From assembly GCA_045106435.1 (NCBI GenBank), contig JBGCEN010000317.1:776-64775 (forward strand): DNA of 64,000 bases. The letters run 5' to 3'. The first letter of the stretch is position 1. Each line of letters opens with the position of its first letter. The notes under the pieces were generated by a model, which worked only from the letters and a program-made list of their open reading frames with translations, was not told the origin of the DNA and did no database searches. This document shows positions 38,301 through 64,000 of this stretch, piece after piece. Both the position numbers and the translations under genes were made by a program. This stretch comes from Rhodothermales bacterium (lineage in GTDB: Bacteria > Bacteroidota > Rhodothermia > Rhodothermales > JAHQVL01).

Positions 38301-39758
38301 CTAGTAGGCACCAGAGCCTTTGACCACTGCAGTGATGGTTCGGATAAGAATGACTGCATCGAGCCATAGAGACCAGTTGCGGACGTAGTAGGGGTCCCAC
38401 TGCTCCATGCCCTCGTTGCCTGAGTCGCTTCTTCCTGATACCTGCCACAGGCCTGTGATGCCGGGTCTTACTCTTTCGCGCAGTTCGCGAACGCGCCGAG
38501 GCAATTCATTGCTGTGATATTGAGGTAGCGGGCGCGGGCCAACCAGTGACATCTCGCCACGAAGGACATTGATTAGCTGTGGCAACTCGTCGAGACTGAG
38601 CCGGCGCAGGATCTTGCCGATTTTTGTGATGCGGGGATCGTTACGCAGTTTGTAAAAGGTCTCCCACTCCTGACGCATTTCATCATCTTCTTCCAGCTTC
38701 TGGCGCAAGACTTCTTCTGCATTCGGGACCATGGTCCTGAACTTATAGGTTTTGAAGTTTTGCCCACCCCGGCCTACGCGGTCCTGACGGAAAAATGGAT
38801 CGCCTCCATCTTCCAGCTTGATAAGTGTGTAGAGGATTGCGCAAACGGGAAACCAAAAGGGCATACTCAATATGACCAGCAAGTAGTCAAAAAGGAGTTT
38901 GGCAAATCGGGAAAAAGGATTGATCAGGTTGGAGGTAATTTCCAGCCCAAGGATGCCATTCAGGTCTCGTGGTTTTACCCACAAAGATGGCGTATCAAAC
39001 ATGTTCGGAATAATCAAGACCGAACGATAGTAGGAGAGTGGTCCTTCAAGAAGCTCTGCTGCACGGGTGCTACTCATGCTAGGCATTGCCAGAATAGCAA
39101 CAGAAGCTTCGGGTGTAACCAGATTTGTGCCTCCTTCAATAGGCACATTCAAAAGATCAGTATTCCATGAATTGGGGTCATCATCAAAGATGCCAATGGG
39201 GTTGTAGCCCAGTCCCTTTTCTTCTTTAAGGAAGCGAACAACCTGCTCCGCAAAGTCGCCACCACCATATATTACCGTTGGTAAGCCCCATTGGTTGAAA
39301 GAAATCAAGGTCCTTTTAACAAGCCAGCGCATGAAGGGAACGGAAACGATGCTTACCAGCAGGGATAGGGTTAAAGTAATACGACTTACAGATTCAGACG
39401 TTTTGCTAATAAAAAGTACAACTGCTGCGCCGGCAAATACGGCTACGAGCAAGAGGGTCGTTCGCCTGAGCTCTTCCACAGGCCCCAGCCCCCAACTGGG
39501 TAGCAACTGAATAAGAGATGCACCAACCCACCATCCGGGAATGAGATACCACGCCCAATCGGGTATAAGCAGTGCGCCTTGCCAGTAATATCGAATCGAG
39601 CCAGCTACCAAAAAAGCAAACACAATGGCAATCATGTCGCCGGCCGCCAGGACCAGGACGTTTTGAACCCTGTGCTTCCAATAGGATACAAGTCTCTCTC
39701 CTTTTCTGGGAAGGCGGTCGAAGAATGACCGCTCGGAAAGTACTTCTACAAGTTCCAT
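38301..39758 (-). CDS. Polyprenyl-phosphate glycosyl-1-phosphate transferase (WbaP/WcaJ-type priming enzyme of EPS synthesis)
   Basis: N-terminal TM bundle plus a Bac_transf C-terminus (FRQDRVG..FKTYKFRTM, RNDPRITKIGKILRRLSLDELPQLINVLRGEMSLVGPRP, GITGLWQVSGRS). Confidence 0.9.
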   Translation of the reverse strand: MELVEVLSERSFFDRLPRKGERLVSYWKHRVQNVLVLAAGDMIAIVFAFLVAGSIRYYWQGALLIPDWAWYLIPGWWVGASLIQLLPSWGLGPVEELRRTTLLLVAVFAGAAVVLFISKTSESVSRITLTLSLLVSIVSVPFMRWLVKRTLISFNQWGLPTVIYGGGDFAEQVVRFLKEEKGLGYNPIGIFDDDPNSWNTDLLNVPIEGGTNLVTPEASVAILAMPSMSSTRAAELLEGPLSYYRSVLIIPNMFDTPSLWVKPRDLNGILGLEITSNLINPFSRFAKLLFDYLLVILSMPFWFPVCAILYTLIKLEDGGDPFFRQDRVGRGGQNFKTYKFRTMVPNAEEVLRQKLEEDDEMRQEWETFYKLRNDPRITKIGKILRRLSLDELPQLINVLRGEMSLVGPRPLPQYHSNELPRRVRELRERVRPGITGLWQVSGRSDSGNEGMEQWDPYYVRNWSLWLDAVILIRTITAVVKGSGAY

Positions 39759-40080
39759 GAGCTAAAATACTCGCTTAAAAGTGGGGAGCTTTCTTGAGAG
39801 AGGAAAATTGAGAACGAAATGCAGTAGATACTTTTTGTCTGCCTGCGTACCAAAGATACAAAACGAGCAGGTGGAATTACTCATCTTTTAAGCGTGTAAA
39901 GGATGCGCCATAACGCTTTATGGAGAGCCCCTTTTGCTTCTGGCCCTATTGGCAAAGAAGCGTCTGAGGCAATCAGTGTTTAGGTGGTGTCCTTAATCAA
40001 CCTTCGATCTGCATTTCAGTCTTTAATGAATTGCTACTACAACAATAGGGCCGAAGTGGGGCGGAAATACGCATAAACAA

Positions 40081-40112
40081 GAATGAGGCCCGGAAAATTC
40101 AGGGCCTCATTC
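40081..40112 (-). terminator. 11-bp GC-rich hairpin downstream of the uxs-like gene (candidate terminator of the upstream operon segment)
   Basis: GAATGAGGCCC-10 nt-GGGCCTCATTC, 37 nt past the stop at 40149. T-rich flanks on both sides (ttttcg on plus, ttgtttat on minus). Confidence 0.6.
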
Positions 40113-40148
40113 TTTTCGTATACCGTCAAATGTACTGTGAGCTCTTTT

Positions 40149-41099
40149 TTATACAGAAGTTAGCTCTGCTTCCTGGTTTTGGAAAAACTCCAGGGTTCTG
40201 CGTAAGCCGGCTTTTCGGTCAACCTGAGGAGACCATTGCAAGATATTTCTCGCTTTGCTGATGTCTGGCTGCCTTACTTTGGGATCGTCAGCTGGTAGAT
40301 CTTTAAATATGATCTCACTTTTACTGCCGGTCAACTCTACAACCTCGCGGGCGAAGTCAAGAATAGAGATCTCGTCAGGATTGCCAATATTTACCGGTTC
40401 AACCTCATCACTCATCAACAACCTGAAGATGCCTTCAACCAGGTCATCTACGTAGCAGAAAGAGCGTGTCTGGCTGCCATCGCCAAATACGGTAATTGGT
40501 TCGCCGGCGAGCGCCTGTTTCATGAACGTTGGGAGCGCGCGGCCGTCATCCAGTCGCATACGCGGGCCATAGGTATTGAAAATACGAATGAGCCGCGTTT
40601 CAACGTCATGATATCGGTGATATGCCATGGTCATGGCTTCGGCAAATCTCTTTGCTTCGTCATAAACACCACGTAAACCTATTGGATTTACATTGCCCCA
40701 GTATTCTTCAGACTGAGGGTGAACCAGAGGATCACCATATACTTCACTGGTTGAGGCAATAAGGAACCTTGCCCGCTTGGATTTTGCTAGTCCAAGTGCT
40801 TTGTGCGTTCCAAGTGCGCCAACTTTTAGGGTCTGTATTGGATATTTAAGATAGTCTACAGGAGACGCTGGACTTGCAAAGTGCAGGATATAGTCCAGCG
40901 GGCCTTCAACGTATATATAGTTGGTTATATCATGCTCAATGAAAGAAAACTTGGGGTTTCCAAACAAATGCGCAACGTTGTCAGGGCGTCCTGTGATGAA
41001 GTTGTCAACACAAATTACTTCATGACCTTCCTTAATAAATCTATCACACAGATGAGACCCGAGAAACCCCGCGCCGCCTGTTACCAGAGTACGTTTCAT
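40149..41099 (-). CDS. uxs: UDP-glucuronate decarboxylase (UDP-xylose synthase), extended SDR
   Basis: [31 protein letters not shown], catalytic YDEAKR, and strong overall resemblance to UXS1/ArnA-C-type decarboxylases. Confidence 0.88.
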
Positions 41100-41123
41100 T
41101 TATCTACAACTATTTAAATTTGC

Positions 41124-42488
41124 TTATTCCGAGAAAACTGTTTCAGACGCCGATACAGGGTGGTGGGGCCGTCCGACTGAGAAGTATTCGAATCCTAGCT
41201 CAGCCATTCTCTCTGGCTTGAACAGGTTACGTCCGTCAAAGATAAGGGAAGATTTCATCAAACCTCGCATCTTCTTAAAGTCAGGACGTCGAAATTCGTG
41301 CCACTCGGTGCAAATAATAAGGGCATCCACATCACTTAGTAAAGAGTAACGGTCTTCTGCATAGGCAAGTTTGTCGCCCAGCACGGCTTTGGTGGTATCA
41401 ATTGCTTCCGGATCAAAAGCAGTTACGCTGGCACCTTTTTCAATAAGCTCGTTTATAATAACATGGGAAGGTGCCTCTCTAACGTCGTCAGTGTTGGGTT
41501 TAAAGGCTAAGCCCCATACTGCGAAGTTCTTGCCAGACACATCTCCATCGAAATAATCCATGATACGATCAACGAGAATTCTTCGTTGTTCTTCATTTAC
41601 ATTGAGAACTGCTTTTAAAATAGCAAAGTCGTAATCGTATTGATCGGCGGTTTGTTTGAGTGCTTTTACATCTTTAGGAAAACAACTTCCACCAAAACCT
41701 ATTCCGGGGTAGAGGAATAATTTTCCTATGCGGCTATCCAGGCCGATGCCGACACGTACATTATCTACGTTCGCTCCAACTTTCTCACACAGGTTTGCCA
41801 CTTCATTCATGAACGTGATCTTGGTAGCAAGAAAAGAGTTGGCCGCGTACTTTGTCATTTCAGCTGAACGTTCGTCCATAGCTAAAATAGGATTGCCCTG
41901 GCGTACGAATGGTTCGTACAGCAGCTTCATCAGGTCGGTAGCGCGCTCATTGGAAGAGCCGATCACAACGCGCTCAGGCTTCATGAAGTCCTCAACGGCA
42001 ACGCCTTCGCGCAAGAATTCAGGGTTAGAAACGACATTGAAGTTTTTATTAGACGCCAAGCCCTGCTCCTCCATAATTGCAGTGACTTTGTCGGCTGTGC
42101 CTACAGGCACGGTGCTTTTGTTTACAATTACTTTATACCCAAGGGCTGGATCAGCAACAAGCAATTTTGCTATGTCCCGGCCAACACCGAGTACGTATGA
42201 AAGATCGGCAGAGCCATCTTCTGAAGGAGGCGTTGGAAGTGCGAGAAAGATGATCTCGGCGTGCTGAACAGCTTTTAAAAGATCGGTTGTGAATTGCAGC
42301 CGGCCCTCTCTCAGATTGCGTTCGAAAAACACCTCGAGACCAGGCTCAAAAATGGTTATGTTGCCATTTGATAATTTCTCAACTTTCGATTCATCTATGT
42401 CAACACAGATAACATCATAACCCATTTCCGAGAAACAGGTACCGGAAACAAGACCCACGTATCCAGTTCCAACGATGGCAATATTCAT
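41124..42488 (-). CDS. ugd: UDP-glucose 6-dehydrogenase
   Basis: MNIAIVGTGYVGLVSG, catalytic GFGGSCFPKD, and AFKPNTDD(V)REAP. Confidence 0.93.
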   Translation of the reverse strand: MNIAIVGTGYVGLVSGTCFSEMGYDVICVDIDESKVEKLSNGNITIFEPGLEVFFERNLREGRLQFTTDLLKAVQHAEIIFLALPTPPSEDGSADLSYVLGVGRDIAKLLVADPALGYKVIVNKSTVPVGTADKVTAIMEEQGLASNKNFNVVSNPEFLREGVAVEDFMKPERVVIGSSNERATDLMKLLYEPFVRQGNPILAMDERSAEMTKYAANSFLATKITFMNEVANLCEKVGANVDNVRVGIGLDSRIGKLFLYPGIGFGGSCFPKDVKALKQTADQYDYDFAILKAVLNVNEEQRRILVDRIMDYFDGDVSGKNFAVWGLAFKPNTDDVREAPSHVIINELIEKGASVTAFDPEAIDTTKAVLGDKLAYAEDRYSLLSDVDALIICTEWHEFRRPDFKKMRGLMKSSLIFDGRNLFKPERMAELGFEYFSVGRPHHPVSASETVFSE

Positions 42489-42657: not shown

Positions 42658-44379
42658 TTATTTTTCCAGGTAGCCAAGCTCAAAGAGCTTCTCTAGTACT
42701 TTTAGTGCACTCTCTTCTACTGATTCATCAGCAGTCTTGCATACAACATCGGCATTTTCCGGTGCTTCATAAGGATCGTCAATACCTGTAAATCCTTTGA
42801 TGAGGCCGGCGCGTGCTTTGGCATACAAGCCTTTTGTGTCGCGTTCTTCAACAACAGCTAGTGGTGCGTCTGCAAATACTTCAAGATATCCACCAAGGCC
42901 TTTGATAAGGTCTTCGTTTACCTTACGATCCGCAAAGTACGGAGCGATTGGCGCACAAATAGCGATACCATGATGCTTTGTGATCTCACTTGCTACGTAA
43001 CCGATACGCTGTACGTTGATTGAGCGATCTTCAGCTGAGAAGCCAAGTCCTTTGCTCAGGTGCGTACGAACTACGTCGCCATCAAGCAAGGTAACAGGGC
43101 GGCTGGTTACTTCAAGAAGTTTGGTCAGCAACGCGTTTGCAATTGTTGATTTACCTGAACCTGAAAGGCCAGTGAAGAATACTGTAAACCCTTGTTTGTT
43201 CTTTGGCGGATGCGTTTTGCGCAGCTCAGCAACAACTTCTGTGTAAGAAAACCAATCAGGAATATCTTCACCTGTTGCAAGGCGCCGGCGCAGCTCTGTG
43301 CCAGAGATGTTCAGTGTTTCTTCTCCTTCTTTTACTTCGTCAATTGGCTTGTAGCCATCGATTGCTGGAGAGTAAACCATGAGGCGGAAAGGTACCATTT
43401 CAATACCCAGCTCTTCCCCGTATTTTGTTACCAGTTCCTGGGCATCGTAAGGACCGTAAATTGGGTCGCCATTGCTGTCGTTGCCAGGGCCGGCGTGGTC
43501 ACGACCTACTACGAGGTGTGTACATCCATGGTTTTTACGGATGATTGCATGCCAGAGTGCTTCACGTGGACCAGCCATACGCATTGCGAGTGGAAGGAGC
43601 GCGAGCATTGCACGGTTTTCTGGGTAGTGCTCGATCAGTTTTTTGTAGCAACGAACACGTGTAAAGTAGTCAACATCACCTGGCTTGGTCATGCCTACAA
43701 CCGGGTGAATCAACAGATGTCCGCCAATACCTTCTGCAGCACGGTCTGTAAGTTCTTTGTGCGCACGGTGCATCGGGTTACGCGTCTGGAAAGCAACTAC
43801 GCGGTCAGCGTTTTTGGCTTCAAACTCTGCACGCATCTGTGCAGGCGTTTTGCGTAATTCCATGAAGTCATAATGGATTGGCATTGCGATGCCTTCCAGT
43901 GATCCGCCGATATAGTGGTCGCCGGCCTGGTCCATCAAGTATGCAACTGCAGGGTGTGCACTGTCTGTGGTGCCAAAAGCTTCTTTTGCTTCTTTTTCTT
44001 TGTTCGGCTCCCAGATGTCAGATACAGTAAGAACAGCAACGAGAAGTCCTGTGTTATCCCGAAGTGCTATTTTGTCTCCAGCGCTGTGGTTACCCGCGGT
44101 CTCTGCGTTCACGTCGAGCGTGATCGGCATTGGCCATAGCGTGCCGTCGGCAAGACGCATGTTATCAAGCACGCTGTCATAGTCTGCCTGCCCCATAAAG
44201 CCGGTCAGTGGAGAGAAACCGCCAGATAATAGCAGCTCAATGTCGCACATCTGACGTGGCGTAAGCGTAATAGAAGGGTAGTTGATTGCTTCTTTTATTG
44301 CTTTATTTAACTCTTCATCTTTGAGAAGCAATTCACAAAGTTTACCGCCGTGTGGTTCAATCAGTGTAAGGGTACTCAT
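42658..44379 (-). CDS. sat/cysC: Bifunctional sulfate adenylyltransferase (Sat-type ATP sulfurylase) / adenylylsulfate kinase, i.e. a PAPS synthase
   Basis: ATP sulfurylase motifs (VAFQTRNPMHRAHKEL, VVGRDHAGPG). The C-terminal APS-kinase has a P-loop (FFTGLSGSGKSTIANAL) and DGDVVR. Confidence 0.93.
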   Translation of the reverse strand: MSTLTLIEPHGGKLCELLLKDEELNKAIKEAINYPSITLTPRQMCDIELLLSGGFSPLTGFMGQADYDSVLDNMRLADGTLWPMPITLDVNAETAGNHSAGDKIALRDNTGLLVAVLTVSDIWEPNKEKEAKEAFGTTDSAHPAVAYLMDQAGDHYIGGSLEGIAMPIHYDFMELRKTPAQMRAEFEAKNADRVVAFQTRNPMHRAHKELTDRAAEGIGGHLLIHPVVGMTKPGDVDYFTRVRCYKKLIEHYPENRAMLALLPLAMRMAGPREALWHAIIRKNHGCTHLVVGRDHAGPGNDSNGDPIYGPYDAQELVTKYGEELGIEMVPFRLMVYSPAIDGYKPIDEVKEGEETLNISGTELRRRLATGEDIPDWFSYTEVVAELRKTHPPKNKQGFTVFFTGLSGSGKSTIANALLTKLLEVTSRPVTLLDGDVVRTHLSKGLGFSAEDRSINVQRIGYVASEITKHHGIAICAPIAPYFADRKVNEDLIKGLGGYLEVFADAPLAVVEERDTKGLYAKARAGLIKGFTGIDDPYEAPENADVVCKTADESVEESALKVLEKLFELGYLEK

Positions 44380-44424: not shown

Positions 44425-45192
44425 TTAGCCTGGTGCCTTGGCAGAAATTATTTGCCTGAGAAAAAGAAGTACAAATCGGGGATTATGCTTGAAATATCGC
44501 TTCCACAAACGTCTGGGTTCCATGATTAGCCTGAAAAGCCATTCAAGAGCCATCCGTTGCATCCATGATGGTGCTTGCTTTACGCGACCTGTATGGAAGT
44601 CAAAAGCAGCGCCAACGCCTAGCATAACAGCAGAACATTTATCTTTGTGTTCTGCCATCCATTTTTCTTGTTTCGGACATCCGATTCCGACAAACAGAAT
44701 GCGAACGCCCGATTCATTGATTTGCTTTGTGTACCGCTCATCTTCTTCAGGCGAAAGCGGACGAAATGGAGGCGCAATAGTACAATTTATTAGTATCCCG
44801 GGATAACTGGTTTCGAGAAATTTGACAAAAGCCTCGAGGCTATCCGGTGTACCACCATACAAACCAATTGGTATACCTTGTTCAGCTGCCAGTTGGCACA
44901 CGTGTAAAGTCAAATCAGGACCGTAAACACGAGTGGCTTCCTGGACGCCCAATAATTTTAAAGCCCAGACGAGCGGAACACCATCTGGGGTAACGAGGTC
45001 AGCGCCGTTGACCACTTCCTGAAAAGCCGAATCATCGTGGCTTTCCATGACCATGTGGACATTGGCTGCACACACATAACGAGATAGTCCATCAGATGCC
45101 CAGTTCACCACCCTGCCAGCAGCATCAGAATAGCTGGTCACATCTACGTGCATCTCTAATATGTCTCGAAAATCCCTTTGTGTTTGTATCAT
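44425..45192 (-). CDS. WecB/TagA/CpsF-family glycosyltransferase (GT26)
   Basis: VTPDGVPLVWALKLLG, ILFVGIGCPKQEKWMAEH and EWLFRLIMEPRRLWKRY are all GT26 hallmarks. Confidence 0.88.
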   Translation of the reverse strand: MIQTQRDFRDILEMHVDVTSYSDAAGRVVNWASDGLSRYVCAANVHMVMESHDDSAFQEVVNGADLVTPDGVPLVWALKLLGVQEATRVYGPDLTLHVCQLAAEQGIPIGLYGGTPDSLEAFVKFLETSYPGILINCTIAPPFRPLSPEEDERYTKQINESGVRILFVGIGCPKQEKWMAEHKDKCSAVMLGVGAAFDFHTGRVKQAPSWMQRMALEWLFRLIMEPRRLWKRYFKHNPRFVLLFLRQIISAKAPG

Positions 45193-45330: not shown

Positions 45331-46566
45331 TTAATAGAGTGCTTTTTCTGGCAAATTCTTCACAACTGAATCGTACATTTTTGTCATTTCAGCCGCTTTT
45401 ATGGTCCAGTTATTACGCCTTGCAAATTCCAGCCCTGTTTTACTCATGCCGGATAGTTTTTCTGGATTTTCATGAAGCGATGTCAGCGCTTCTGCCAGTC
45501 TATTCATTGTTTCTTTCGGGTTAGATACCTTTACCCGAATACCTGCTTCATTCGGCACGAAGTCATGTGCTCCCTGATGATCAAGGGTCACTATGGCCAG
45601 ACCGTTACTCATTGCTTCCAGTAATTGCGAGCCAAATGAGTCTCTCAGACTTGTGAACAGAAATACTTCGTGTTCTTCATAAGCGGTTTGTACCTCATCC
45701 CAGGGTACACGTCCTTTCCACTCAACTTTTCCAGATAATCCTAATTCATTGATCCAATCATTAACAAAGGCGTCTTCCGGCCCGTCTCCTAGAATCGTCA
45801 TCTGGAAGGGGAAGTTAAGTTTAGCAACAACTTCCAGGGAAAACTTGATGGCCTTGCGTTCGAGCAGCCGGCCCACCCATAAAATATTCATCTTCTCATT
45901 TGAGAAGCCAGCCTTGGGTGCATCTGCAAAATAATGATCTGGAAGTCCAGTGTCCAGAAAAAGTTCAGAACGGATTGCACCCATTGTCTTTGCGATATTC
46001 AATGTGTCGCTATTTGTGGCCAGCAAGAGCGCTGTATGCTTGAGCATTCTCTTGGTAGCCGGCAAAGACGGCAGAAACTTCTCTGTAATATACGTGCGAA
46101 TAGACTCCTGGCGCCATCTTGTAGGAAAGTATTCCTTGAAGGCCTCCGGGGCTACCTGGCCGCCGCCGACAGGGCCAAAGATAAAGGGAATATTCAATTT
46201 CCAAAGCCACGAGCCACCAATAAGGCTTCCCCAGGTGACATGATGGGCAAGGTCGAACTTGTGTTCGTTTAGCAGTTCCTTGGCTTGCCGGTAGGCAGCC
46301 CGCTGCCATAAGAAGTAGTGTGCGTACACACCAAAAATGCCTTTCATCGCCGGCTTGTAGCGAGCCGGGATATCAACAAAAATAAAGCGCAGGTTGGGAA
46401 TGGGGTTCTCCCGCATTTCCTTTTCAACCGTTTCCCTCGCCCAGGTTCGCGTTACTACCCATACTTCATGCCCTTCCTTTGCCAGGTGTGTGGACCAGTT
46501 CCAGCCGAATCCTTCTTCGGAGCCGCGATGGGGTTCACAGGCATATGCGGATAGCAGTATGTTCAT
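45331..46566 (-). CDS. GT-B fold glycosyltransferase (GT4-like)
   Basis: N-terminal NILLSAYACEPHRGSEEGFGW and a C-terminal E-x7-E region (FGSQLLEAMSNGLAIVT). Confidence 0.8.
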   Translation of the reverse strand: MNILLSAYACEPHRGSEEGFGWNWSTHLAKEGHEVWVVTRTWARETVEKEMRENPIPNLRFIFVDIPARYKPAMKGIFGVYAHYFLWQRAAYRQAKELLNEHKFDLAHHVTWGSLIGGSWLWKLNIPFIFGPVGGGQVAPEAFKEYFPTRWRQESIRTYITEKFLPSLPATKRMLKHTALLLATNSDTLNIAKTMGAIRSELFLDTGLPDHYFADAPKAGFSNEKMNILWVGRLLERKAIKFSLEVVAKLNFPFQMTILGDGPEDAFVNDWINELGLSGKVEWKGRVPWDEVQTAYEEHEVFLFTSLRDSFGSQLLEAMSNGLAIVTLDHQGAHDFVPNEAGIRVKVSNPKETMNRLAEALTSLHENPEKLSGMSKTGLEFARRNNWTIKAAEMTKMYDSVVKNLPEKALY

Positions 46567-55803: not shown

Positions 55804-57246
55804 TTATGCATTATAGTGTGCATTCATAGCGCGCATGTATTGATGCATGGCTATTTTTTGTTCAGTATGGTTTAGGCTTATCGCCATGCCGAGCCCCACA
55901 AACATCCATGTAAATGGTTCGAAATCGTAAGCGATATAATAGGCCGATGAGCCCAGAATAATTACGAGTGCAAGCAGGCAAGTCATTTTATAGAATGGAT
56001 CAGCCGTCTCTTTATAGGTTCTTTTTAATCTAACATACATCTGAATAACAAAACCTAAATAGAGTAGCAGGCCGATGAGTCCAACTTGATATAGTAGCTG
56101 GACATATTGGTTATGGAGCATTTTAGTCACAATCAATCCGTTCGGCGCGCGCATCATGAAGTAATTTCCGAGGCCTTTGCCCTCGAGTAAATGCGCGCTT
56201 GATTGCTTAATGGCATCGAGCCAAATGAGATAACGCCAGTTTGCCGTCTCATCTTTGGTCGGATCTGTTAAGGCTACCAGGCGCTCTTCCATGAAGCCGA
56301 CCAGGTCCAGATCATCATAAAAAAAGTTGATCAAGAGGAGGGCTGTGAAAGCAGCCATCCCCATCTTCATCAGATTGCCCAGCTTTAAATGTCCCATGAG
56401 AAACAGCACAAACATCGATACCATGGCTGCAAGCCAGACGGACCTATGGCTAGCAATAACCGTGAGGGCCATCGATAGGGCAATGAGTGTGGCAAACCAA
56501 AAATTACCATACTTCCAGAATCCATAGCGCTGCATTAAGTAAATGCCAAGTGTACCCCAGACAAGGCCAAGTGAGCCATGCTGATACAGCCATTTTGCAT
56601 ACGCTGCAAATCTGAATTTATGTACGTAGCCGCCACGGAATAACCCAATGGCAATCATGATCATGGTCACCCATATCAGGACCTTGAACATTTTCCATTG
56701 CTCAGCCCGTGTAGCCGCAAAGATCACGATGTAAGGGATGATCAATATCTCCCTGAAATACGTTCTGAACTCACCCAGTGGGCTAACCAGACCAAACATG
56801 GAGGCTGATCTGGCGAGTTCAAAAATCATCCAGAGCATAAAGATACTCCAGATTGACATCTCCTTGAAGAATGCTCTTTTCGCCCTTGGATCGCCGATAA
56901 AGAGCTTTGCCATCATGGCGGACAACATGCTGAATAATATGGGGTCTCCATATAACATATCGATGCCGCCGCCAATATTTATCGATGGCTCTATGTATTT
57001 GGAATAGTCCCAAATGATCATTTCAACCATGACCTGGGTAGAGAATGCCCACAAGGCTATCATAAAAGAAGGATAGCGATAGGCAATCACAAAGAAGATA
57101 AGTGCAGCACACAGGCCATTCAGCAGGATGACGATTTTCTCGCCGCCGAACACAAGAATGGCAAAAAACAAAACGGCACCAATGCAGAGCGCAATGAGCT
57201 CTACCGGGCTCCATTTGCTTCCTATGTTTTCCAAAAGGCTGGACAT
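55804..57246 (-). CDS. wzy: O-antigen ligase/polymerase-family membrane protein (Wzy-like polymerase)
   Basis: 480 aa with about 10-12 TM helices and one larger loop. A+T-rich. The locus also has wzx and wzc. Confidence 0.7.
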   Translation of the reverse strand: MSSLLENIGSKWSPVELIALCIGAVLFFAILVFGGEKIVILLNGLCAALIFFVIAYRYPSFMIALWAFSTQVMVEMIIWDYSKYIEPSINIGGGIDMLYGDPILFSMLSAMMAKLFIGDPRAKRAFFKEMSIWSIFMLWMIFELARSASMFGLVSPLGEFRTYFREILIIPYIVIFAATRAEQWKMFKVLIWVTMIMIAIGLFRGGYVHKFRFAAYAKWLYQHGSLGLVWGTLGIYLMQRYGFWKYGNFWFATLIALSMALTVIASHRSVWLAAMVSMFVLFLMGHLKLGNLMKMGMAAFTALLLINFFYDDLDLVGFMEERLVALTDPTKDETANWRYLIWLDAIKQSSAHLLEGKGLGNYFMMRAPNGLIVTKMLHNQYVQLLYQVGLIGLLLYLGFVIQMYVRLKRTYKETADPFYKMTCLLALVIILGSSAYYIAYDFEPFTWMFVGLGMAISLNHTEQKIAMHQYMRAMNAHYNA

Positions 57247-57425: not shown

Positions 57426-60224
57426 TTATGCCAACGCTGATGTTTGGATAATAAGCGACACCGCCTTTACGTCTGAGTAGGCAGTGACCAAAAGCGGTGT
57501 TTGCGGCATTACGCTGTTTAGTCTCGTTAATGGCATCGTTCCGTCCAGACCTGTTCGCGTACCGCGGATCAGTTCACCGGACAGGGTACTAATTTGTACA
57601 TCCGCATCGGGTATTAACAATGTGGCTGGTAAGGCACTGGTTGGCCGGCGTCCTGTGTCTTTTGATGCAAGATAGAGCGCACTGCCTCCGCGTGGGTCCT
57701 CGTCTGGTGGATCTACCAGGTTTCGTATCGCGAGGCTCGTATTTGGATCCTCCAATTGCGGGTTAAATTCCATTTGGAGGAAATTCCAATAGAATACACC
57801 TTCTCTGCTTCTCAGGCTTGGTGACTCATAATCTGCATGATATAATGCGTAAACTCGCAACGTGCGCCCGTCATAGTCTTCCATGCGTTCGCCAAAGTCT
57901 TCTTTGGGAGAGCGCCCGGAGCCCCGGCCAATAGGGCCAAAGCAACATTCTGGAAGTCTGTGCTCTTTGTTTACCATTATACAGCCGTTGTGTACATCAC
58001 CGTAAACGGTTGTAATGCCTTCCCGACTACCTAACAGATTTAAGACGCGGTCGGAAGCTGCTTTAACCCAGCCGGCATAGTCTGCAACAACACGATCTCG
58101 CTGCTCGAATTTTTGTCCTGTTTCGCTGTTTGTTTTTACGCCAGACCAAATGGTATGCAGTCCGTTGATGCCTGTAACGCAGACCAGCGGAGAGGCGTCG
58201 GTTTTTATCTGCTGTTCAAGCCAGCTAAATTGTTCTTCGCCGAGGAGGGTGCGCGTAGGGTTGGCGCGGTCATAGGCGTTGTCAAGATGCCCCCAGCCTT
58301 CGTCATCCCAGATGCGCGTGTCTTGTGACGTTCGCCAGAGCCTGGCATCCATGATGTAGATGCTGAAATCCTTGGCCGGCATTCGCCATTTGCGCCAGTT
58401 TTTAGGGTTGGAAACAGCGTCGGGTGCTTCGTCACCAGAAATCAGGTGTTGCACAATCTGAAAATTACGACGCATGTACGCCGGATCCTGGCCTGTATTT
58501 TCTTCTTTTCTGACAATCAACTGCTCTGGGCCTTTTACGTCATCCATTCCGAAGTCGTGATCTCCGGGGTTTATAACATTCCAGTGCCGCATCATTTGCC
58601 AGCGCGTGGTCGGGCCGGCGATGGTTGTGTTGATTACTTTATAGGCATCGTCCGTGCTGGGTGGAGCAAACATGAGCTCCAGGTACCAGACATCATCTTC
58701 CCAAAGCATCACCTGGAAGTCATAAGATTCAAGGTGTTGAAAAGCGCGAGGAGTCGGTTGGTCGTGTACGTACCAGGACTGATATTCTTGCCAATCAGGT
58801 AAGTCGGGGTTGTTTTTGTGTATAGAATGGCAGCTCAGTCCACAAATTTTGTAAGGTGCAACCAACTGAGGCAAGCGGCCGATATATTGTCCGGTGCGGG
58901 GTACTTTCCCAATAAAACCCGTCCCCGGACCAACGCTATTTGAGCCTATGCGGAGATCTTCAGTTACGTCGACACCGTCTTTCCATACAGTATAATATAG
59001 GGTTCGGCTATCAGGCGGGTAGGGGAGTTGTGCATCTAGCACTGCCGTGTTGCGCCTGAAGTTGTTTGTTACAATAGGTGCAACTGCTGCTACAGGAACG
59101 TTTGCCCAACCTTCTGCAGGAAATTCCGTGTCGGAAATTCTTAGCGCAACTTCCTGTCCATGATTCCTGAATATTGAGATGAATTTGCATTGCCATCCCG
59201 CTGCAGTTTTGGTCAGCGTGTCTCCAAGGGGATAACACACTTGAAGCTCATTGGTTGGAACACTGAGTTGGAGGTTTTCGCCAGGATCAAGTGAGATGTT
59301 AGAAACCTCAAAGTCAATCAATCCTCTTGCTACGAGACCGAAATACCCGTTGGTATACAACATCCGATTGACGCGTGGCAACTGAATTGTATGCCAGTCA
59401 TCATCAATCTGCAGGATGGCAGAGATATCAGCGTACTGCTCATCGTCGCCGGCTACAAAAAGGGTAATCGATCCGATAGCGCCGGCTTTAAGCTTGCCAA
59501 AATTTAGCGCCGCATTTTCGTCAACTGGATTCAGGTCATCGGTGAGATGGCTGTAAAATCCAAAATTGGCGTCGTCTGAAACGAGCGCCATCCATGCGGC
59601 TTCTTTTGTGTTTTGACCGGGTAGCAGGGACTTGAGCAGCGAGACTTCCTGGCCGGTATTGCTCCCCGTCCAGCTTTCGTGCAGGCAGCTTGAGCCAAAA
59701 GCCAGGCCTAATACACCATATCCGGGCTGGGTTTGTAGTTCTTGTGCTTCAGACTGGTTTGCAGGCTTTGGTGCGTATTCTGGCAGGGCGAGAACCTTAA
59801 AATCAAAACGAATGGAGAAATTGCCAGAAAGCTGCCAGTCGCGCCGCCATATCATTCCAAAGGGTAAAGACGGATCACGATCTATGGGAATTTTTTGATC
59901 ACGATGGGTTTCATAATGCCAGGGAAACCAGTCGCCGGGCCTTTTGTCGCCTTCATTGGTGAGCCGTCGCCGCAACACATTGTTTTTGATTTCCCAGTAT
60001 CCAGGATTCATAGATTCCCATTCATTACCAATGGAAAATGAATCACTGCGTTCGAAATCATCAATGACAAAAGCACTGCTTCGGGCGGGGAGGCCCGGTG
60101 TGCCAGTGTTCGACGATGGTTGTGTGCATGACGAAACAATGGCGCCACCGCCAAGGCTGGTGGCGCCAATCATTCCCATACGCTGGAGAAAATTCCTGCG
60201 GGAAACAGGCTTCGATTTACTCAT
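57426..60224 (-). CDS. Tat-exported lipoprotein with a C-terminal PhoD-like metallophosphatase domain; the N-terminal approx. 450 aa are unknown
   Basis: Tat signal plus lipobox (SRRNFLQRMGMIGATSLGGGAIVSSC). PhoD-like motif series: NPGDHDFG, YIMDARLWRT, LLGEEQFSWLEQQI, VYGDVHNG. Confidence 0.5.
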   Translation of the reverse strand: MSKSKPVSRRNFLQRMGMIGATSLGGGAIVSSCTQPSSNTGTPGLPARSSAFVIDDFERSDSFSIGNEWESMNPGYWEIKNNVLRRRLTNEGDKRPGDWFPWHYETHRDQKIPIDRDPSLPFGMIWRRDWQLSGNFSIRFDFKVLALPEYAPKPANQSEAQELQTQPGYGVLGLAFGSSCLHESWTGSNTGQEVSLLKSLLPGQNTKEAAWMALVSDDANFGFYSHLTDDLNPVDENAALNFGKLKAGAIGSITLFVAGDDEQYADISAILQIDDDWHTIQLPRVNRMLYTNGYFGLVARGLIDFEVSNISLDPGENLQLSVPTNELQVCYPLGDTLTKTAAGWQCKFISIFRNHGQEVALRISDTEFPAEGWANVPVAAVAPIVTNNFRRNTAVLDAQLPYPPDSRTLYYTVWKDGVDVTEDLRIGSNSVGPGTGFIGKVPRTGQYIGRLPQLVAPYKICGLSCHSIHKNNPDLPDWQEYQSWYVHDQPTPRAFQHLESYDFQVMLWEDDVWYLELMFAPPSTDDAYKVINTTIAGPTTRWQMMRHWNVINPGDHDFGMDDVKGPEQLIVRKEENTGQDPAYMRRNFQIVQHLISGDEAPDAVSNPKNWRKWRMPAKDFSIYIMDARLWRTSQDTRIWDDEGWGHLDNAYDRANPTRTLLGEEQFSWLEQQIKTDASPLVCVTGINGLHTIWSGVKTNSETGQKFEQRDRVVADYAGWVKAASDRVLNLLGSREGITTVYGDVHNGCIMVNKEHRLPECCFGPIGRGSGRSPKEDFGERMEDYDGRTLRVYALYHADYESPSLRSREGVFYWNFLQMEFNPQLEDPNTSLAIRNLVDPPDEDPRGGSALYLASKDTGRRPTSALPATLLIPDADVQISTLSGELIRGTRTGLDGTMPLTRLNSVMPQTPLLVTAYSDVKAVSLIIQTSALA

Positions 60225-60243: not shown

Positions 60244-61317
60244 TCAGGCAGGGTGATTTTCTTTGAGTGTCAGTTCTGCCTTTGCGGTAGCAAGGTCGGC
60301 TGCAACCATTTCGGCAACCATTTCTGCGAGGCTGCACTTGGGTGTCCAGTTCAATATCTCGCGTGCTTTTGCGGCATCTCCCAGGAGAAGTTCTACCTCG
60401 GTTGGGCGATAGTAGCGTGGATCTACAGCCACCAGCTCTTCGCCGGTATCTTTCCTGTATCCTTTTTCTTCTTCATTCTTGCCTTCCCATGCAACTTCGA
60501 TCCCTACGGAATTGAATGCTGCGTTACAGAAATCTCGTACCGTTGTGGTTTCACCGGTTGCAAGGACAAAATCTTCAGGCTTGTCTTGCTGTAGCATTAA
60601 CCACATGCCTTCAACATAGTCGCGCGCATGTCCCCAGTCTCTCTTTGCGTCGAGATTGCCAAGGAATAGTTTGTCCTGCAGGCCAATGCTGATACGTGCT
60701 GCAGCACGGGTAATTTTTCTTGTCACAAAAGTCTCGCCACGGCGCGGGCTTTCGTGGTTGAATAGGATACCATTGCAAGCATACATATTGTATGCTTCAC
60801 GATAGTTAACAGTGATCCAGTATCCGTAAAGTTTGGCTACGGCATACGGGCTTCTTGGATAGAAGGGGGTAGTTTCGCTCTGAGGAATTTCCTGGACTTT
60901 ACCGTAAAGCTCTGATGTTGAAGCCTGGTAGAATCGCGTTTTTTCCTGCAGTCCGAGAATGCGAATGGCTTCAAGTAAGCGAAGAGTACCCAGTCCATCG
61001 GTATTTGCTGTATACTCAGGTGTTTCAAAACTGACCTGCACGTGGCTTTGTGCAGCCAGGTTGTAAATCTCGTCGGGCTGTACTTCCTGGACAATACGGA
61101 TAAGATTCGTAGAGTCGGTCAGGTCGCCGTAGTGCAATTTGAATCGGGCACCGCTGTTGTGCGGATCTTCATAGATGTGATCAATCCGTTGTGTGTTAAA
61201 AGAACTTGCTCTTCTTTTAATCCCGTGGACTTCATATCCTTTTGCAAGCAAGAGCTCAGCTAGATAGGCTCCATCCTGACCCGTGACACCGGTGATTAAT
61301 GCGCGCCGATTTTCCAT
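60244..61317 (-). CDS. gmd: GDP-mannose 4,6-dehydratase
   Basis: [56 protein letters not shown] and [19 protein letters not shown] give a near-canonical Gmd. Confidence 0.95.
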
Positions 61318-61366: not shown

Positions 61367-61399
61367 CTGAGCCGGCAAATAAGATGCCGACAGGCTCAG
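61367..61399 (-). terminator. Imperfect hairpin between fcl and gmd (weak attenuator/terminator candidate)
   Basis: CTGAGCC..GGC..GCC..GGCTCAG. It sits in the 122-nt fcl-gmd spacer and has no clear U-tract. Confidence 0.3.
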
Positions 61400-61439
61400 C
61401 CAATTTGAACACAATAGGATGCTGTTATGAATAGATTGC

Positions 61440-62417
61440 TTACGAGGTGGCTAAATAGTTATCGCAAAACCACTCGTGTGACATTCTGATACCATCTTCA
61501 AGAGACGTTTTTGCCGTCCATCCAAGTTTTTCCATTCTGGATACATCCATCAATTTTCGAGGTGTGCCGTCTGGCTTGGATGCGTCGTAAATTATTTCGC
61601 TTTTGCTATTGAGAATTGATCTGATAAGCTCAGCAAGTCCACGAATGCTAATGTCTTTGCCGGCCCCTACATTCAGAATGCCATCAGGGGCAATGCTGAA
61701 GATGGCCTCTGAAGATTGCTCCATGGCAAACACACAAGCGTCTGCCATGTCATCTACATACAAAAACTCACGCAAGGGTGTACCGCTTCCCCATAGTGTA
61801 ACGGAAGCATCTGGCATGCCGTCTGTGCCTTTGGCTTCGTGGAATTTTCTGATGAGTGCCGGCAAAACATGACTCGTTTGAAGGTCAAAGTTGTCATGTG
61901 GGCCATATAGATTGGTTGGCATCACGCTGAAAAAGTCACTACCATACTGCTTTCTATAGGCTTCGCACATTTTGATGCCAGAGATTTTGGCAATGGCATA
62001 CCATTCATTTGTTGGCTCAAGCGGGCCTGTCAGCAAGCAATCCTCCCGTAGTGGCTGCTCCGCCAGTTTGGGGTAGATGCACGAACTGCCCAGAAAAAGC
62101 AGACGCTTCGTTTTTGCCTGATGTGCAGCGCGAATGACATTTGCCTGAATGGCTATGTTGTCGCTAATGAAATCTGCAGGATAAGTGTTGTTGGCATGAA
62201 TACCACCAACTTTGGCCGCTGCAAGAATCACGCACGCTGGTTTATATTCGTTGAAAAATGCTTCAACATCTGCCTGGCGAAGGAGATCTAGCTCCTGGCG
62301 TGTTCTAACGATAATATTTGTGTATCCACCAGCCGCTAATCTTCTGACAATGGCTGAGCCTACCAGACCACGATGGCCGGCAACAAAAATGGGTTCAGTT
62401 TTTCCTACTTGTGGCAT
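61440..62417 (-). CDS. fcl: GDP-L-fucose synthase (GDP-4-keto-6-deoxymannose 3,5-epimerase/4-reductase)
   Basis: IFVAGHRGLVGSAIVRRL, LGSSCIYPK, YAIAKI, NLYGPHDNF, and REFLYVDDMADA. Confidence 0.93.
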   Translation of the reverse strand: MPQVGKTEPIFVAGHRGLVGSAIVRRLAAGGYTNIIVRTRQELDLLRQADVEAFFNEYKPACVILAAAKVGGIHANNTYPADFISDNIAIQANVIRAAHQAKTKRLLFLGSSCIYPKLAEQPLREDCLLTGPLEPTNEWYAIAKISGIKMCEAYRKQYGSDFFSVMPTNLYGPHDNFDLQTSHVLPALIRKFHEAKGTDGMPDASVTLWGSGTPLREFLYVDDMADACVFAMEQSSEAIFSIAPDGILNVGAGKDISIRGLAELIRSILNSKSEIIYDASKPDGTPRKLMDVSRMEKLGWTAKTSLEDGIRMSHEWFCDNYLATS

Positions 62418-62422
62418 AAAAA

Positions 62423-62983
62423 TTAATTTCCAGAAGTTAGCCGTTCAACCAGCAATAATGTAGAGAGAAGAGGTCCAATGACGGTGAAAACATCCCGCCA
62501 ATTCATTTTCCGTTTCTGCTCAATGTCGATAATAACAATATCTCCTTCAGAGAGTGTCGGGGAATCCGCAGCGCGGTCCATGACCTCGCTAAAAGATGCT
62601 TCATATGCAAGCGATCGTGCACTGCCGGAATTCCGGTACATGCGAACTGTAACAGTTTCTTTTACATCCGGCTGGCTAAATATGCTTGGACCGCCGCCCA
62701 GTGCTAACAACAACGCGAGGTTTGACCCTTCTTCAAGAACATATACCCCTGGATTCTTGATTTTTCCAAAGGCTGAGATTTGAATGGTAGCAGAGCCAGG
62801 TTCGACGAGATAGTAAAACGCATCGATGTTTGTATCTGTATCCTCTATTCGGCCAAAGCGTGCTCCTGAATCAGGATTAGTGACCTGTGCGTGCGCAGTG
62901 TGAACGAATTGGAAGCATAATATAAGGCCAAGAGCGAGCACCCACCGGGCGCTCGCTCCTGAAGCTGGAGCAATAATAGACAT
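62423..62983 (-). CDS. Small secreted SLBB-domain protein (minimal polysaccharide-export/OPX-like component)
   Basis: Signal peptide (ALGLILCFQFVHTAHA). SLBB-like segments (ISAFGKIKNPGVYVLEEGSNLALLLALGGGP, LSEGDIVIID). Hydrophobic C-terminal helix. It sits between wzc and fcl. Confidence 0.5.
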   Translation of the reverse strand: MSIIAPASGASARWVLALGLILCFQFVHTAHAQVTNPDSGARFGRIEDTDTNIDAFYYLVEPGSATIQISAFGKIKNPGVYVLEEGSNLALLLALGGGPSIFSQPDVKETVTVRMYRNSGSARSLAYEASFSEVMDRAADSPTLSEGDIVIIDIEQKRKMNWRDVFTVIGPLLSTLLLVERLTSGN

Positions 62984-63051
62984 AACTATTAGGGGGAAAT
63001 GGATTAATAAATAATACTGGAAATGTTAAATCAGAACAATAATGAAATGGC

Positions 63052-64000
63052 TTAGCTGGCTACATAACTGTTAGAGCCGTAACTATATCCATATGTATTT
63101 TTATAGCCGTACATACTAGAAGGATCAAATCTATTTAATACTGTCCCAAGTATTTTGGCATTCACACTTTTCAGTTCTTCAAGCGTCTGGTTCAGTGCTT
63201 CCATGTCGGTACCATCAGAAGAAGCTACAACAACCACGCCATCACACTGACGAGATAAGAGTACAGGGTCAACACATCCCAGAACAGGCGGTGTGTCAAA
63301 GATAATAATGTCAAATTCGGTCCGGAATCTTTCGATTAAGTCAATCATCTTCCGTGAACCAAGCAGCTCAGCCGGCTGTGATACAGGGATGCCTGTAATA
63401 ACATAGACATTTTCTATCCCCGTAAAGAACCGCTCCGAATCCCATCGGCTTTCGTCTTCAGACAATAACTCAAGGAGACTTGGGCCTTCAGGCAATCCTA
63501 ATTTGTCGTGCAAAGAAGGCCTGCGCAAGTCAGCGTCAACTACCAGTGTTCTTTTACCCGCCTGGGCGGTCGTAAACGCAAGGTTGAGTGACGTTGTGCT
63601 TTTGCCGGCGCCGGCTTTCGGACTTGTAATCATCAAGTTCTGAATGCCCATGTCATCGCGGCTGAATTGCATCTTAATATATAGCCGGCGATAAGCCTCG
63701 GCAATTGGCGACATCGGCGCAATGAGTGCAGCAAGTGAAGTACTCACTTCCCTGCCTTCAAAGTCGATTTTCAATCGCTTGCCAAATTCCTTCTTGATCA
63801 ACTGACGCATGTCAGGCACAACGCCCAGCATGTTGATGTCGCGGTCATTCAGGTCATCTGGAGAGTAGACTTTCGTATCAAACTTGCGTCTGGCTACTGC
63901 TACACCAATACCCATCATCAAACCGAGCATCAAGCCCATGATCATGTTGATGAGTTTTTTGGGTTTGATTGGATCTTTAGCGCTTAAAGCAGGGCTAAGG
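63052..64000 (-). CDS. wzc: Wzc-type polysaccharide co-polymerase/BY tyrosine kinase, C-terminal part. The 5' end lies outside the window.
   Basis: The reading frame stays open to base 64000 (checked codon by codon). It has a TM helix and then the kinase domain: Walker A SPKAGAGKSTTSLNLA, Walker A' VVDADLRRP, Walker B IIIFDTPP, and a C-terminal Tyr cluster YGYKNTYGYSYGSNSY. Confidence 0.88.
   Translation of the reverse strand, partial: LSPALSAKDPIKPKKLINMIMGLMLGLMMGIGVAVARRKFDTKVYSPDDLNDRDINMLGVVPDMRQLIKKEFGKRLKIDFEGREVSTSLAALIAPMSPIAEAYRRLYIKMQFSRDDMGIQNLMITSPKAGAGKSTTSLNLAFTTAQAGKRTLVVDADLRRPSLHDKLGLPEGPSLLELLSEDESRWDSERFFTGIENVYVITGIPVSQPAELLGSRKMIDLIERFRTEFDIIIFDTPPVLGCVDPVLLSRQCDGVVVVASSDGTDMEALNQTLEELKSVNAKILGTVLNRFDPSSMYGYKNTYGYSYGSNSYVAS

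Follow-up and report, generated by a model that had tools for sequence, protein, structure and literature searches.

We describe a block of 19 genes (positions 38301 to 64000, minus strand) in a 64,000-nucleotide stretch of contig JBGCEN010000317.1 from a marine-type Rhodothermales metagenome-assembled genome (MAG; GCA_045106435.1); the whole stretch is referred to below as the window. The block probably constitutes a chromosomal Wzx/Wzy-dependent exopolysaccharide (EPS) or capsule locus that builds a sulfated polymer and has its own pathways to GDP-L-fucose, UDP-glucuronate (UDP-GlcA), UDP-xylose (UDP-Xyl), and 3'-phosphoadenosine-5'-phosphosulfate (PAPS). Judged from gene content, the best reading of the product is a sulfated polymer of fucose (Fuc), xylose (Xyl), and glucuronate (GlcA). 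An earlier interpretation of the same DNA, made from its letters and open reading frames (ORFs) and here called the original prediction, had arrived at this product. We retain it as the best reading, with the composition read from the precursor genes only.

Gene content and layout of the locus

The ORF listing of the window shows 19 consecutive minus-strand ORFs that fill positions 38301 to 64000, confirming the gene number, the extent of about 26 kb, and the gene order given originally. Coding sequence makes up 23,356 of the 25,700 bases (91%). The widest intergenic gaps, of 390 bp (39759 to 40148) and 374 bp (51912 to 52285), contain ORFs of at most 81 amino acids (aa). Eleven plus-strand ORFs of at least 100 aa occur in the interval, and we treat them as shadow ORFs because all of them are nested in well-supported minus-strand genes. 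Ten were scanned against Pfam, with no match at E ≤ 0.01, in keeping with the earlier statement that no plus-strand gene interrupts the 19; the unscanned one (62478 to 62783, 101 aa) lies inside the gene of a small SLBB-domain protein.

Gene identities were assigned by searches of Pfam and NCBIfam and by sequence search of the PDB, with curated cut-offs. Fifteen of the 19 identities originally given lie above curated thresholds. The calls are weaker for the remaining four, namely, a 329-aa "GT-B" glycosyltransferase, a 932-aa "PhoD-like" protein, the 186-aa "SLBB" protein, and the function of a secreted beta-helix protein. All genes of the block described below are on the minus strand.

Precursor and sulfation genes

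The genes for activated sugars are well supported. Gmd (60244 to 61317) matched TIGR01472 with 617.6 bits (cut-off, 415), and the GDP-L-fucose synthase Fcl (61440 to 62417) matched NF047922 (GDPFucSynFcl) with an E value of 3.8e-147, its 489.6 bits lying slightly below the cut-off of 500. Ugd, a UDP-glucose 6-dehydrogenase (41124 to 42488), contains all three UDPG_MGDP_dh domains and scored 454.8 bits against TIGR03026 (cut-off, 189.8); its best equivalog was TuaD (E value of 1.4e-164), at 548.4 bits, which is below TuaD's own cut-off of 700. The UDP-glucuronate decarboxylase (UDP-xylose synthase) UXS (40149 to 41099) aligned over residues 2 to 309 with structures of human UXS1 (4gll/2b69; E value of ~1e-109), while ArnA and other short-chain dehydrogenases/reductases in the PDB did no better than 1e-41. 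A fused sat-cysC gene for PAPS synthase (42658 to 44379) scored 886.7 bits against NF004040, the bifunctional sulfate adenylyltransferase/adenylylsulfate kinase family (cut-off, 669). These profile and PDB matches uphold the precursor logic that had been proposed, in which Gmd and Fcl provide GDP-L-fucose, Ugd UDP-GlcA, UXS UDP-Xyl, and Sat-CysC PAPS.

Two genes encode cytoplasmic, PAPS-dependent sulfotransferases, designated ST-A (54924 to 55748) and ST-B (52286 to 53266). ST-A matched Sulfotransfer_1 (PF00685) with 42.5 bits (cut-off, 22; E value of 6.8e-11), and ST-B matched Sulfotransfer_3 (PF13469) with 124.7 bits (cut-off, 27; E value of 8.6e-36). As motif criteria we used PxxGxT/S for the 5'-phosphosulfate-binding (PSB) loop and RxPxxxxxS for the 3'-phosphate-binding (PB) motif. 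ST-A carries LPKSGTH(L) and RDPRAVLVSF at these positions, and no signal peptide is visible in its sequence. In ST-B, LPRSGSTLL and RNPLSIIAS are in register with the structure of the CurM sulfotransferase (4gbm; E value of 1.4e-12). All four motifs are invariant in the orthologues, which are 61 to 82% identical. With scores above the Pfam cut-offs and intact motifs, both proteins are confirmed as members of the PAPS-type family; the original prediction had named profile searches that would place both in other families as grounds for abandoning it, and the searches did not do so. The only NCBIfam match of ST-B is NoeE. NoeE acts on Nod-factor fucose, and CurM is a polyketide-pathway sulfotransferase. 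The block thereby holds ATP sulfurylase and adenylylsulfate kinase together with sulfotransferases, and PAPS genes plus sulfotransferases have been described as a hallmark of sulfated capsular polysaccharide (CPS) loci (PMC11641403).

The start of ST-B abuts the stop of wzx with zero gap. Homologues of ST-B with 49 to 50% identity occur in flippase-containing EPS loci of a Nostocales cyanobacterium and of Rubrobacter aplysinae, the flippase gene being directly upstream in the former and one gene removed in the latter. The zero-gap junction and the flippase-linked homologues fit sulfation before flipping. ST-B is identical to MFK7846881.1 of a Rhodothermales bacterium MAG. A genome-contig scan with the ST-B alignment returned two loci, both in Rhodothermales MAGs; the scan used narrow peptide patterns and has little bearing on absence elsewhere, Rhodothermus marinus included.

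Two of the more distant loci deserve description in their own right. The actinobacterial locus of R. aplysinae (LEKH01000012.1) shares ST-B (49%), GT26 (56%), Gmd (63%), Fcl (62%), and the priming transferase (38%) with the window, and it contains three adjacent sulfotransferases after the flippase, a beta-helix protein, and a low-molecular-weight phosphotyrosine phosphatase. A plasmid of Pseudosulfitobacter pseudonitzschiae (NZ_CP086879.1, 255739 to 280524) encodes a protein with 30% identity to ST-A, annotated as "hypothetical protein," directly after the flippase of an EPS locus with Wzc, a polysaccharide export protein, gmd, fcl, and manC. The ST-A-like gene is found on about 30 plasmids of this diatom-associated species.

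Wzx/Wzy assembly and export

The assembly machinery conforms to the Wzx/Wzy architecture that had been proposed, with the priming transferase, Wzx, Wzy, and the kinase part of Wzc each matched by a profile. The last gene of the block (38301 to 39758) encodes a WbaP-type polyprenyl-phosphate hexose-1-phosphate transferase (TIGR03022 WbaP_sugtrans, 446.8 bits, with a cut-off of 403; Bac_transf, E value of 4.8e-61). The repeat-unit flippase gene wzx (53267 to 54664) matched Polysacc_synt (E value of 2.9e-20), and the repeat-unit polymerase gene wzy (55804 to 57246) matched Wzy_C with 47.4 bits (cut-off, 31.7). The C-terminal ~315 aa of Wzc, a polysaccharide copolymerase (PCP) of type PCP-2a with a bacterial tyrosine kinase domain, are encoded at 63052 to 64000 (GNVR, E value of 1.1e-6; TIGR01007, 145.9 bits, with a cut-off of 108). 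The gene continues past the window end; its orthologue in a related contig (GCA_041391505.1, L002 below) is 787 aa long, with Wzz, GNVR, and AAA_31 domains. The translation contains the Walker A motif GAGKST and the tyrosine-rich tail YGYKNTYGYSYGSNSY.

Glycosyltransferases of three families were identified above threshold: a GT26 (WecG/TagA/CpsF) enzyme (44425 to 45192; PF03808, E value of 1.6e-62; TIGR00696, 195.6 bits, with a cut-off of 69), a GT4 enzyme (45331 to 46566; Glycos_transf_1, E value of 4.5e-26), and two GT2 enzymes, GT2a (50074 to 50946; Glycos_transf_2, E value of 4.4e-27) and GT2b (51009 to 51911; Glycos_transf_2, E value of 2.6e-12). The 329-aa product of 48955 to 49944 reached 24.3 bits against Glycos_transf_1 (PF00534), below the cut-off of 26.4, and had no NCBIfam match. 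A profile of its orthologues gave only marginal GT-B matches in the PDB (E values of 0.08 to 0.17). A GT4-like motif, SGACEALSSDTPLIATRS (EAL..G.P), is visible and largely invariant, and the protein is probably a GT-B-type glycosyltransferase.

Next to wzc in the syntenic loci lies the gene for a secreted 186-aa SLBB protein with a conserved C-terminal hydrophobic helix (62423 to 62983; SLBB, E value of 0.0021). Its family comprises only 23 members, of which four have a named source (three Rhodothermales and one Bacteroidota MAG). SLBB matches were obtained in 17 of the 21 members scanned (best E value, 2.9e-7), and Poly_export or Wza_C matches in none of the 21. The AlphaFold2 model, of medium confidence (mean predicted local distance difference test score [pLDDT] of 64.6), shows a signal helix, a beta-grasp domain (residues 64 to 158), and a helix (162 to 184). 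In a Foldseek search with this model, the top match was WzaB of Myxococcus (9n9a; E value of 3e-3), a class 3 outer membrane polysaccharide export (OPX) protein, with Wza of Escherichia coli (2j58) in sixth place. We consider the protein a candidate minimal OPX-like export component; OPX proteins have been defined by a Poly_export domain (PF02563) plus SLBB domains (PMC9603273), and the 186-aa protein falls short of that definition.

The cognate phosphotyrosine phosphatase of Wzc, of either the Wzb or the PHP type (CpsB), was not found among the 19 genes. A PHP-domain ORF adjacent to the block at 36945 to 38246 (plus strand) was considered as a CpsB-like Wzc phosphatase and rejected: its match (E value of 1.9e-4) was below the cut-off, PDB matches had E values of >0.1, and two related contigs (L012 and L013 below) lack an equivalent ORF next to the locus. 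We likewise found no manB/manC, cysQ, or sulfate permease gene within the 19-gene block. The locus had been called self-sufficient, and this description is overstated because manB/manC (GDP-mannose supply), cysQ (PAP removal), the sulfate permease, the Wzb phosphatase, and a canonical Poly_export-type Wza are missing from the block and the window ends within wzc.

Conservation in related contigs

A comparison of synteny across related genomes had been proposed as a check on the original prediction, and it supports the locus as a unit. Seven contigs (L002, L003, L007, L008, L010, L012, and L013), each showing part of the block, together account for all 19 genes, with order and orientation as in the window and 44 to 92% aa identity; a further contig, L001, is a partial assembly of the window sequence itself. 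The 5' part is present from wzc onward in L002, L007, L008, and L010 and from gmd onward in L003, and L012 and L013 contain the 3' part down to the priming transferase. Because the seven contigs jointly keep all 19 genes in order and orientation, we conclude from this synteny that the arrangement is not due to chance. L002 has no polysaccharide-related gene upstream of wzc, and the context after the priming transferase in L012 and L013 differs from that of the window; we therefore delimit the unit as wzc to the priming transferase.

Sat-CysC occupies the same locus position in L007, L008, L010, L012, and L013. Because the block order, Sat-CysC included, is kept across related contigs, we take the enzyme to travel with the locus and not to be a chance housekeeping neighbor. 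Wzy orthologues are 62 to 85% identical over their full length (92% over a fragment in L007), and Sat-CysC orthologues are 74 to 82% identical. We regard the locus as a stable, clade-level one and not as a hypervariable serotype island because Wzy and Sat-CysC are conserved to this extent.

Variation is seen at a few places. The noncoding 374-bp gap between ST-B and GT2b is a variable slot, which is occupied by an additional gene (329 aa, weakly matching DUF4915) in L002 (17623 to 18612) and L008 (11020 to 12009) and a BCCT betaine/choline transporter gene in reverse orientation in L007 (10978 to 12492). In the metagenomic contig L012 (134 to 3297), GT2a and the GT-B-like gene are missing, so that GT2b is followed directly by the beta-helix gene, and the rest of the 3' half is kept; this loss suggests a shorter repeat-unit variant. 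In L007, from a Rhodothermales MAG, the PhoD-like gene and wzy are split into several ORFs (3007 to 7494), reflecting either long-read frameshifts or real pseudogenes.

Accessory proteins

The 932-aa protein encoded between gmd and wzy (57426 to 60224) has a twin-arginine translocation (Tat) signal and is identical to MFK7846885.1 of a Rhodothermales bacterium MAG. It had been described as a Tat PhoD-like protein, and this description holds for the twin-arginine signal and for the PhoD fold seen in the model; the Pfam PhoD score of 23.6 bits is below the cut-off of 27, and an N-terminal lectin-like domain has to be added. In the AlphaFold model (pLDDT of 83.6), the C-terminal ~600 residues match Bacillus subtilis PhoD (2yeq) with a Foldseek E value of 7e-15 and a template modeling score of 0.62 on the target, and the N-terminal ~270 residues adopt a legume-lectin/concanavalin A-like fold, with Foldseek matches to VIP36, lectins, and PL14. 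A 54-sequence profile of the family gave no sequence match in the PDB. Across the 54 homologues, R9, R10, and F12 of the Tat motif (SRRNFL) are at least 90% conserved. Among 8,000 candidates scored, 426 proteins belonged to the family at E ≤ 1e-5, and no characterized member was found.

The PhoD-like gene occupies the gmd-wzy interval in L002, L003, L008, and L010, and in L007 it is found there in fragments. Three homologues with ~50% identity, from a Phycisphaera MAG and two metagenome contigs (L004, L005, and L006), stand alone in unrelated neighborhoods, and the one in L005 adjoins a sulfatase gene. We therefore rejected the idea that these proteins form a dedicated family of EPS enzymes, since, among the homologues examined, only the Rhodothermales copies are locus linked. 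The protein could be an accessory recruited to the locus, for example, a phosphodiesterase acting on glycans, or a passenger that has long resided there.

A second unusual protein (46685 to 48766) is a secreted right-handed beta-helix protein with a C-terminal dockerin (Beta_helix, E value of 7.4e-15; NosD; DUF1565; Dockerin_1, E value of 1.7e-8) and a visible N-terminal signal peptide. Its N-terminal 90 aa match a GH120 xylosidase (3vst; E value of 1.8e-8). It belongs to a large, uncharacterized family in which relatives carry type IX secretion system sorting tails, malectin domains, and carbohydrate-binding modules. We postulate that it is probably a secreted polymer-processing enzyme, for which a glycanase/hydrolase, a lyase, and an epimerase are indistinguishable from the sequence. 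PADLOC returned no defense-system match for the four odd proteins of the block.

Comparison with known systems

A close architectural parallel is the xss cluster for synechan on plasmid pSYSM of Synechocystis sp. strain PCC 6803 (Maeda et al. 2021, PMC8205485), which is likewise Wzx/Wzy dependent and has a priming sugar transferase, a GT26, several GT2/GT4 enzymes, and a PCP. Like the window locus, xss has two sulfotransferases of different subfamilies and no canonical OPX inside the cluster. The two sulfotransferases in that Wzx/Wzy locus give sulfated synechan, sulfation being presumed to occur on the lipid-linked unit (PMC8205485). The parts are not closely related: by tblastn against pSYSM, ST-B is 22% and 18% identical to the two xss sulfotransferases, XssA and XssE (E values of 8e-7 and 3e-6), and ST-A has no match; the GT26 is 32% identical to its counterpart, and the priming enzyme is 45% identical over the catalytic domain only. 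Nucleotide-sugar and PAPS genes, both present in the window locus, are absent from xss. The xss regulators XssQ, XssR, and XssS are absent from the window locus, a flanking regulator showing generic histidine kinase similarity only. Synechan is a polymer of rhamnose, mannose, galactose, and glucose without Fuc, Xyl, or GlcA, unlike the predicted product here. We interpret the two loci as analogous in architecture and not orthologous in their parts.

Sulfated capsules with solved structures have been linked to loci with PAPS genes and sulfotransferases in Vibrio sp. strain KMM 8419 and Cobetia marina KMM 1449 (PMC11641403, PMC11766843). Those loci differ from the block in being ABC transporter (Kps) systems of ~70 to 80 genes that use CysD/CysN/CysC in place of a fused Sat-CysC and make rhamnose-based disaccharide repeats. 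The Cobetia locus also carries cysQ and a sulfate permease gene, neither of which is in the window locus. Predicted sulfated-polysaccharide loci have further been reported in Pontiella and Actinoplanes (PMC7356697, PMC13390465).

The same precursor set occurs in the cultured Roseobacter Sagittula stellata E-37, on plasmid NZ_CP155733.1 (13658 to 38605), where UXS, Ugd, Gmd, and Fcl are 54, 46, 64, and 55% identical to those of the window. The Sagittula locus encodes an ST-B-like protein (31%), two more sulfotransferases, a Wzy-like protein, a sugar transferase, and many glycosyltransferases. It differs in being plasmid borne and alphaproteobacterial and in having an ABC-type ATP-binding protein annotated at the wzx position, and, unlike the window locus, the stretch examined has no PAPS, Wzc, beta-helix, or PhoD-like genes. 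A full-text literature search (Sagittula, exopolysaccharide, sulfat*) found no published chemistry of a Sagittula polysaccharide. The gene set is not unique, given Sagittula and Pseudosulfitobacter, and no instance of it appears to have been chemically characterized.

Within the lineage, the EPS of Rhodothermus marinus, of the same order as the window organism, has xylose as its main sugar and Fourier transform infrared (FT-IR) bands assigned to sulfate ester (1219 cm-1) and carboxylate (PMC9590192); this EPS has no assigned locus, and its reported sugars do not include fucose. Sulfotransferases and glycosyltransferases are part of the accessory genome of R. marinus, and the authors of that study tie the sulfotransferases to EPS differences (bioRxiv 10.1101/2021.05.17.444423). 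The O-antigen cluster of Salinibacter ruber also contains sulfotransferases and glycosyltransferases (PMC6060240). Among papers on Rhodothermus marinus and sulfotransferases and the top-ranked results for Rhodothermales sulfated polysaccharides, we found no sulfated-EPS locus assigned in Rhodothermales. The original prediction had presented the gene set as without a characterized example in this lineage, naming the synechan xss cluster and rhizobial LPS/Nod sulfation as the bacterial precedents. That part stands insofar as no instance appears chemically characterized; the novelty was overstated, given the PAPS/sulfotransferase loci published for Vibrio and Cobetia and the hints from the lineage itself.

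The overlap with brown-algal fucoidans and xylofucoglucuronans is confined to the predicted building blocks (sulfated fucose, xylose, and glucuronate). Both kinds of algal polymer are made in the Golgi by machinery unrelated to the bacterial locus.

Genomic context

The GC content of the block (0.44 to 0.50) is the same as that of the rest of the window; with integrase and tRNA genes absent as well, we dropped the reading of the block as a recent island. tRNA and Rfam scans of the whole 64-kb window found nothing. A sigma-70 promoter scan was at background (36 found versus 32.5 expected), and the lineage may use other promoters. Terminator-like matches numbered roughly double the shuffle mean, with no intergenic pattern.

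A hybrid two-component-system-like regulator (34539 to 36722, plus strand) is encoded on the other strand, ~1.6 kb away from the 3' end of the locus. It is composed of a hybrid histidine kinase, a receiver, and an AraC-type helix-turn-helix domain, and neither L012 nor L013 has an equivalent gene next to the locus. A sulfatase family gene (10843 to 12390, minus strand) and a PAP2 phosphatase gene (8959 to 9774, minus strand) are ~26 to 30 kb from the locus and not contiguous with it. Elsewhere in the window, a 1,117-aa PSCyt1/PSCyt2/PSD1 protein with a Laminin_G_3 insert is followed by a DUF1501 protein (26443 to 31329, plus strand). Such gene pairs are typical of Planctomycetes and Verrucomicrobia, and here one is found in a Rhodothermales MAG. 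Two large proteins of 842 and 800 aa are encoded in tandem at 3985 to 8925 (plus strand), each with a CarboxypepD_reg-like domain and DUF5686.

Discussion

Our observations of gene identity, order, conservation, and cofactor motifs are direct. The biochemical steps without exception, the sugars of the polymer, where and when sulfation takes place, and what the SLBB, beta-helix, and PhoD-like proteins do are all inferred from these observations, together with family knowledge and the synechan model (PMC8205485). In the mechanism that we propose, the WbaP-type enzyme would load hexose-1-phosphate onto undecaprenyl phosphate, and the GT26, the GT4, the GT-B-like protein, and the two GT2 enzymes would build on it a repeat unit of at most about six sugars drawn from Fuc, GlcA, Xyl, and housekeeping hexoses. 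The two sulfotransferases, which have no signal peptides, would O-sulfate the lipid-linked unit in the cytoplasm with PAPS from Sat-CysC, and Wzx, whose gene abuts ST-B, would flip the sulfated unit. Wzy would then polymerize it, with Wzc controlling polymerization and export, and the small SLBB protein may be part of the outer membrane exit. Outside the cell, trimming or modification of the polymer is probably the task of the secreted beta-helix/dockerin protein.

Several points weigh against this interpretation of the block as a sulfated Fuc/Xyl/GlcA locus. The organism is known only as a MAG, with the polymer predicted from genes alone, and the donor specificity of glycosyltransferases is not readable from sequence. 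UDP-GlcA might serve only as the precursor of UDP-Xyl, so that GlcA need not be in the polymer. Identity of the sulfotransferases to XssA and XssE is 18 to 22%, or undetectable for ST-A, which precludes a transfer of function by orthology. Canonical OPX (Poly_export) and Wzb genes are absent from the block, and no OPX candidate other than the SLBB protein was found in the window. The GT-B call is sub-threshold and weak, and the PhoD-like gene may be a passenger, its relatives elsewhere lying outside EPS loci.

With respect to composition, a sulfated polymer in which at least one of fucose, xylose, and glucuronate goes unincorporated, or in which other sugars dominate, is a genuine possibility, although we lean against it. 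It draws on the fact that only precursor genes speak for the composition, the six transferases having no assignable donors, and on L012, where the loss of GT2a and the GT-B-like gene with all precursor genes kept indicates that transferase and precursor content are partly uncoupled. The EPS of R. marinus, which contains Xyl, mannose, and arabinose and no fucose (PMC9590192), points in the same direction. All four precursor-sugar genes are nevertheless kept at 74 to 92% identity in the syntenic loci, which argues that each product is used, and the same four-gene set recurs with sulfotransferases in Sagittula. A different question is whether the glycan is free EPS or capsule at all, since the same Wzx/Wzy chemistry could yield an O-antigen-like side chain of lipopolysaccharide or a glycan of surface proteins or the S-layer. 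The sulfotransferases and glycosyltransferases in the O-antigen cluster of the related S. ruber (PMC6060240), the missing canonical Wza, and the inclusion of O-antigen ligases in the Pfam Wzy_C family would all be compatible with such a product. We consider it improbable, however, because the operon is headed by a PCP-2a tyrosine autokinase (Wzc), a type typical of capsule and EPS and not of O-antigen Wzz systems; wzc is followed by an SLBB protein with OPX-like fold matches; and Wzy is conserved at 62 to 85%, unlike in hypervariable O-antigen loci.

In a third alternative, the polysaccharide would be unsulfated, and the sulfotransferases and Sat-CysC, although embedded in its locus, would act in assimilatory sulfur metabolism or in making a sulfated lipid or small molecule. 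We regard this as very improbable. The closest solved relative of ST-B is indeed CurM, from a polyketide pathway, its only NCBIfam match is NoeE, and acceptors are unpredictable from sequence. Both sulfotransferase genes, however, are interleaved on one strand with wzy, wzx, and glycosyltransferase genes, ST-B abutting wzx; this arrangement and Sat-CysC are kept across the syntenic loci, and ST-B homologues are found in flippase-containing EPS loci of other phyla. The match to NoeE, which sulfates a fucose residue, is itself compatible with a fucose acceptor here.

A sulfated polymer made through Wzx and Wzy thus remains our preferred reading, and the locus is a well-supported annotation and chemical prediction, not a mechanistic surprise. 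We class it as a plausible further case of an already known type, namely, Wzx/Wzy EPS loci that carry sulfotransferases together with in-cluster PAPS synthesis. Most of the remaining novelty is carried by the accessories, that is, the SLBB, lectin-PhoD, and beta-helix/dockerin proteins. We speculate, as a tentative idea that we hold to be rather doubtful in its joint form, that such loci represent an overlooked bacterial route to fucoidan-like polymers that recurs: it would be conserved by vertical descent in one Rhodothermales clade, with parallels in independent loci of Roseobacters (Sagittula and Pseudosulfitobacter) and Rubrobacter. The noncanonical accessories of the Rhodothermales locus would be an exporter component of 186 aa with a single SLBB domain and a lectin-PhoD phosphodiesterase drawn from a family of stand-alone genes.

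Genetically defined bacterial sulfated-polysaccharide loci are few, consisting of the synechan cluster and the structure-linked capsule loci of Vibrio and Cobetia. Several recent papers still describe such sulfated polymers as essentially cyanobacterial. The known range would be widened by a conserved locus from Rhodothermales that brings its own PAPS synthase and the precursor genes for Fuc, Xyl, and GlcA; such a locus would supply sulfotransferase and glycosyltransferase candidates for fucoidan-like materials, and S. stellata E-37 is a cultured organism with the same precursor-plus-sulfotransferase logic. The locus would also bear on which organisms produce recalcitrant sulfated glycans in marine carbon cycling: if the fucoidan-like route is true, part of the sea's "algal" pool of fucose-containing sulfated polysaccharide would be bacterial.

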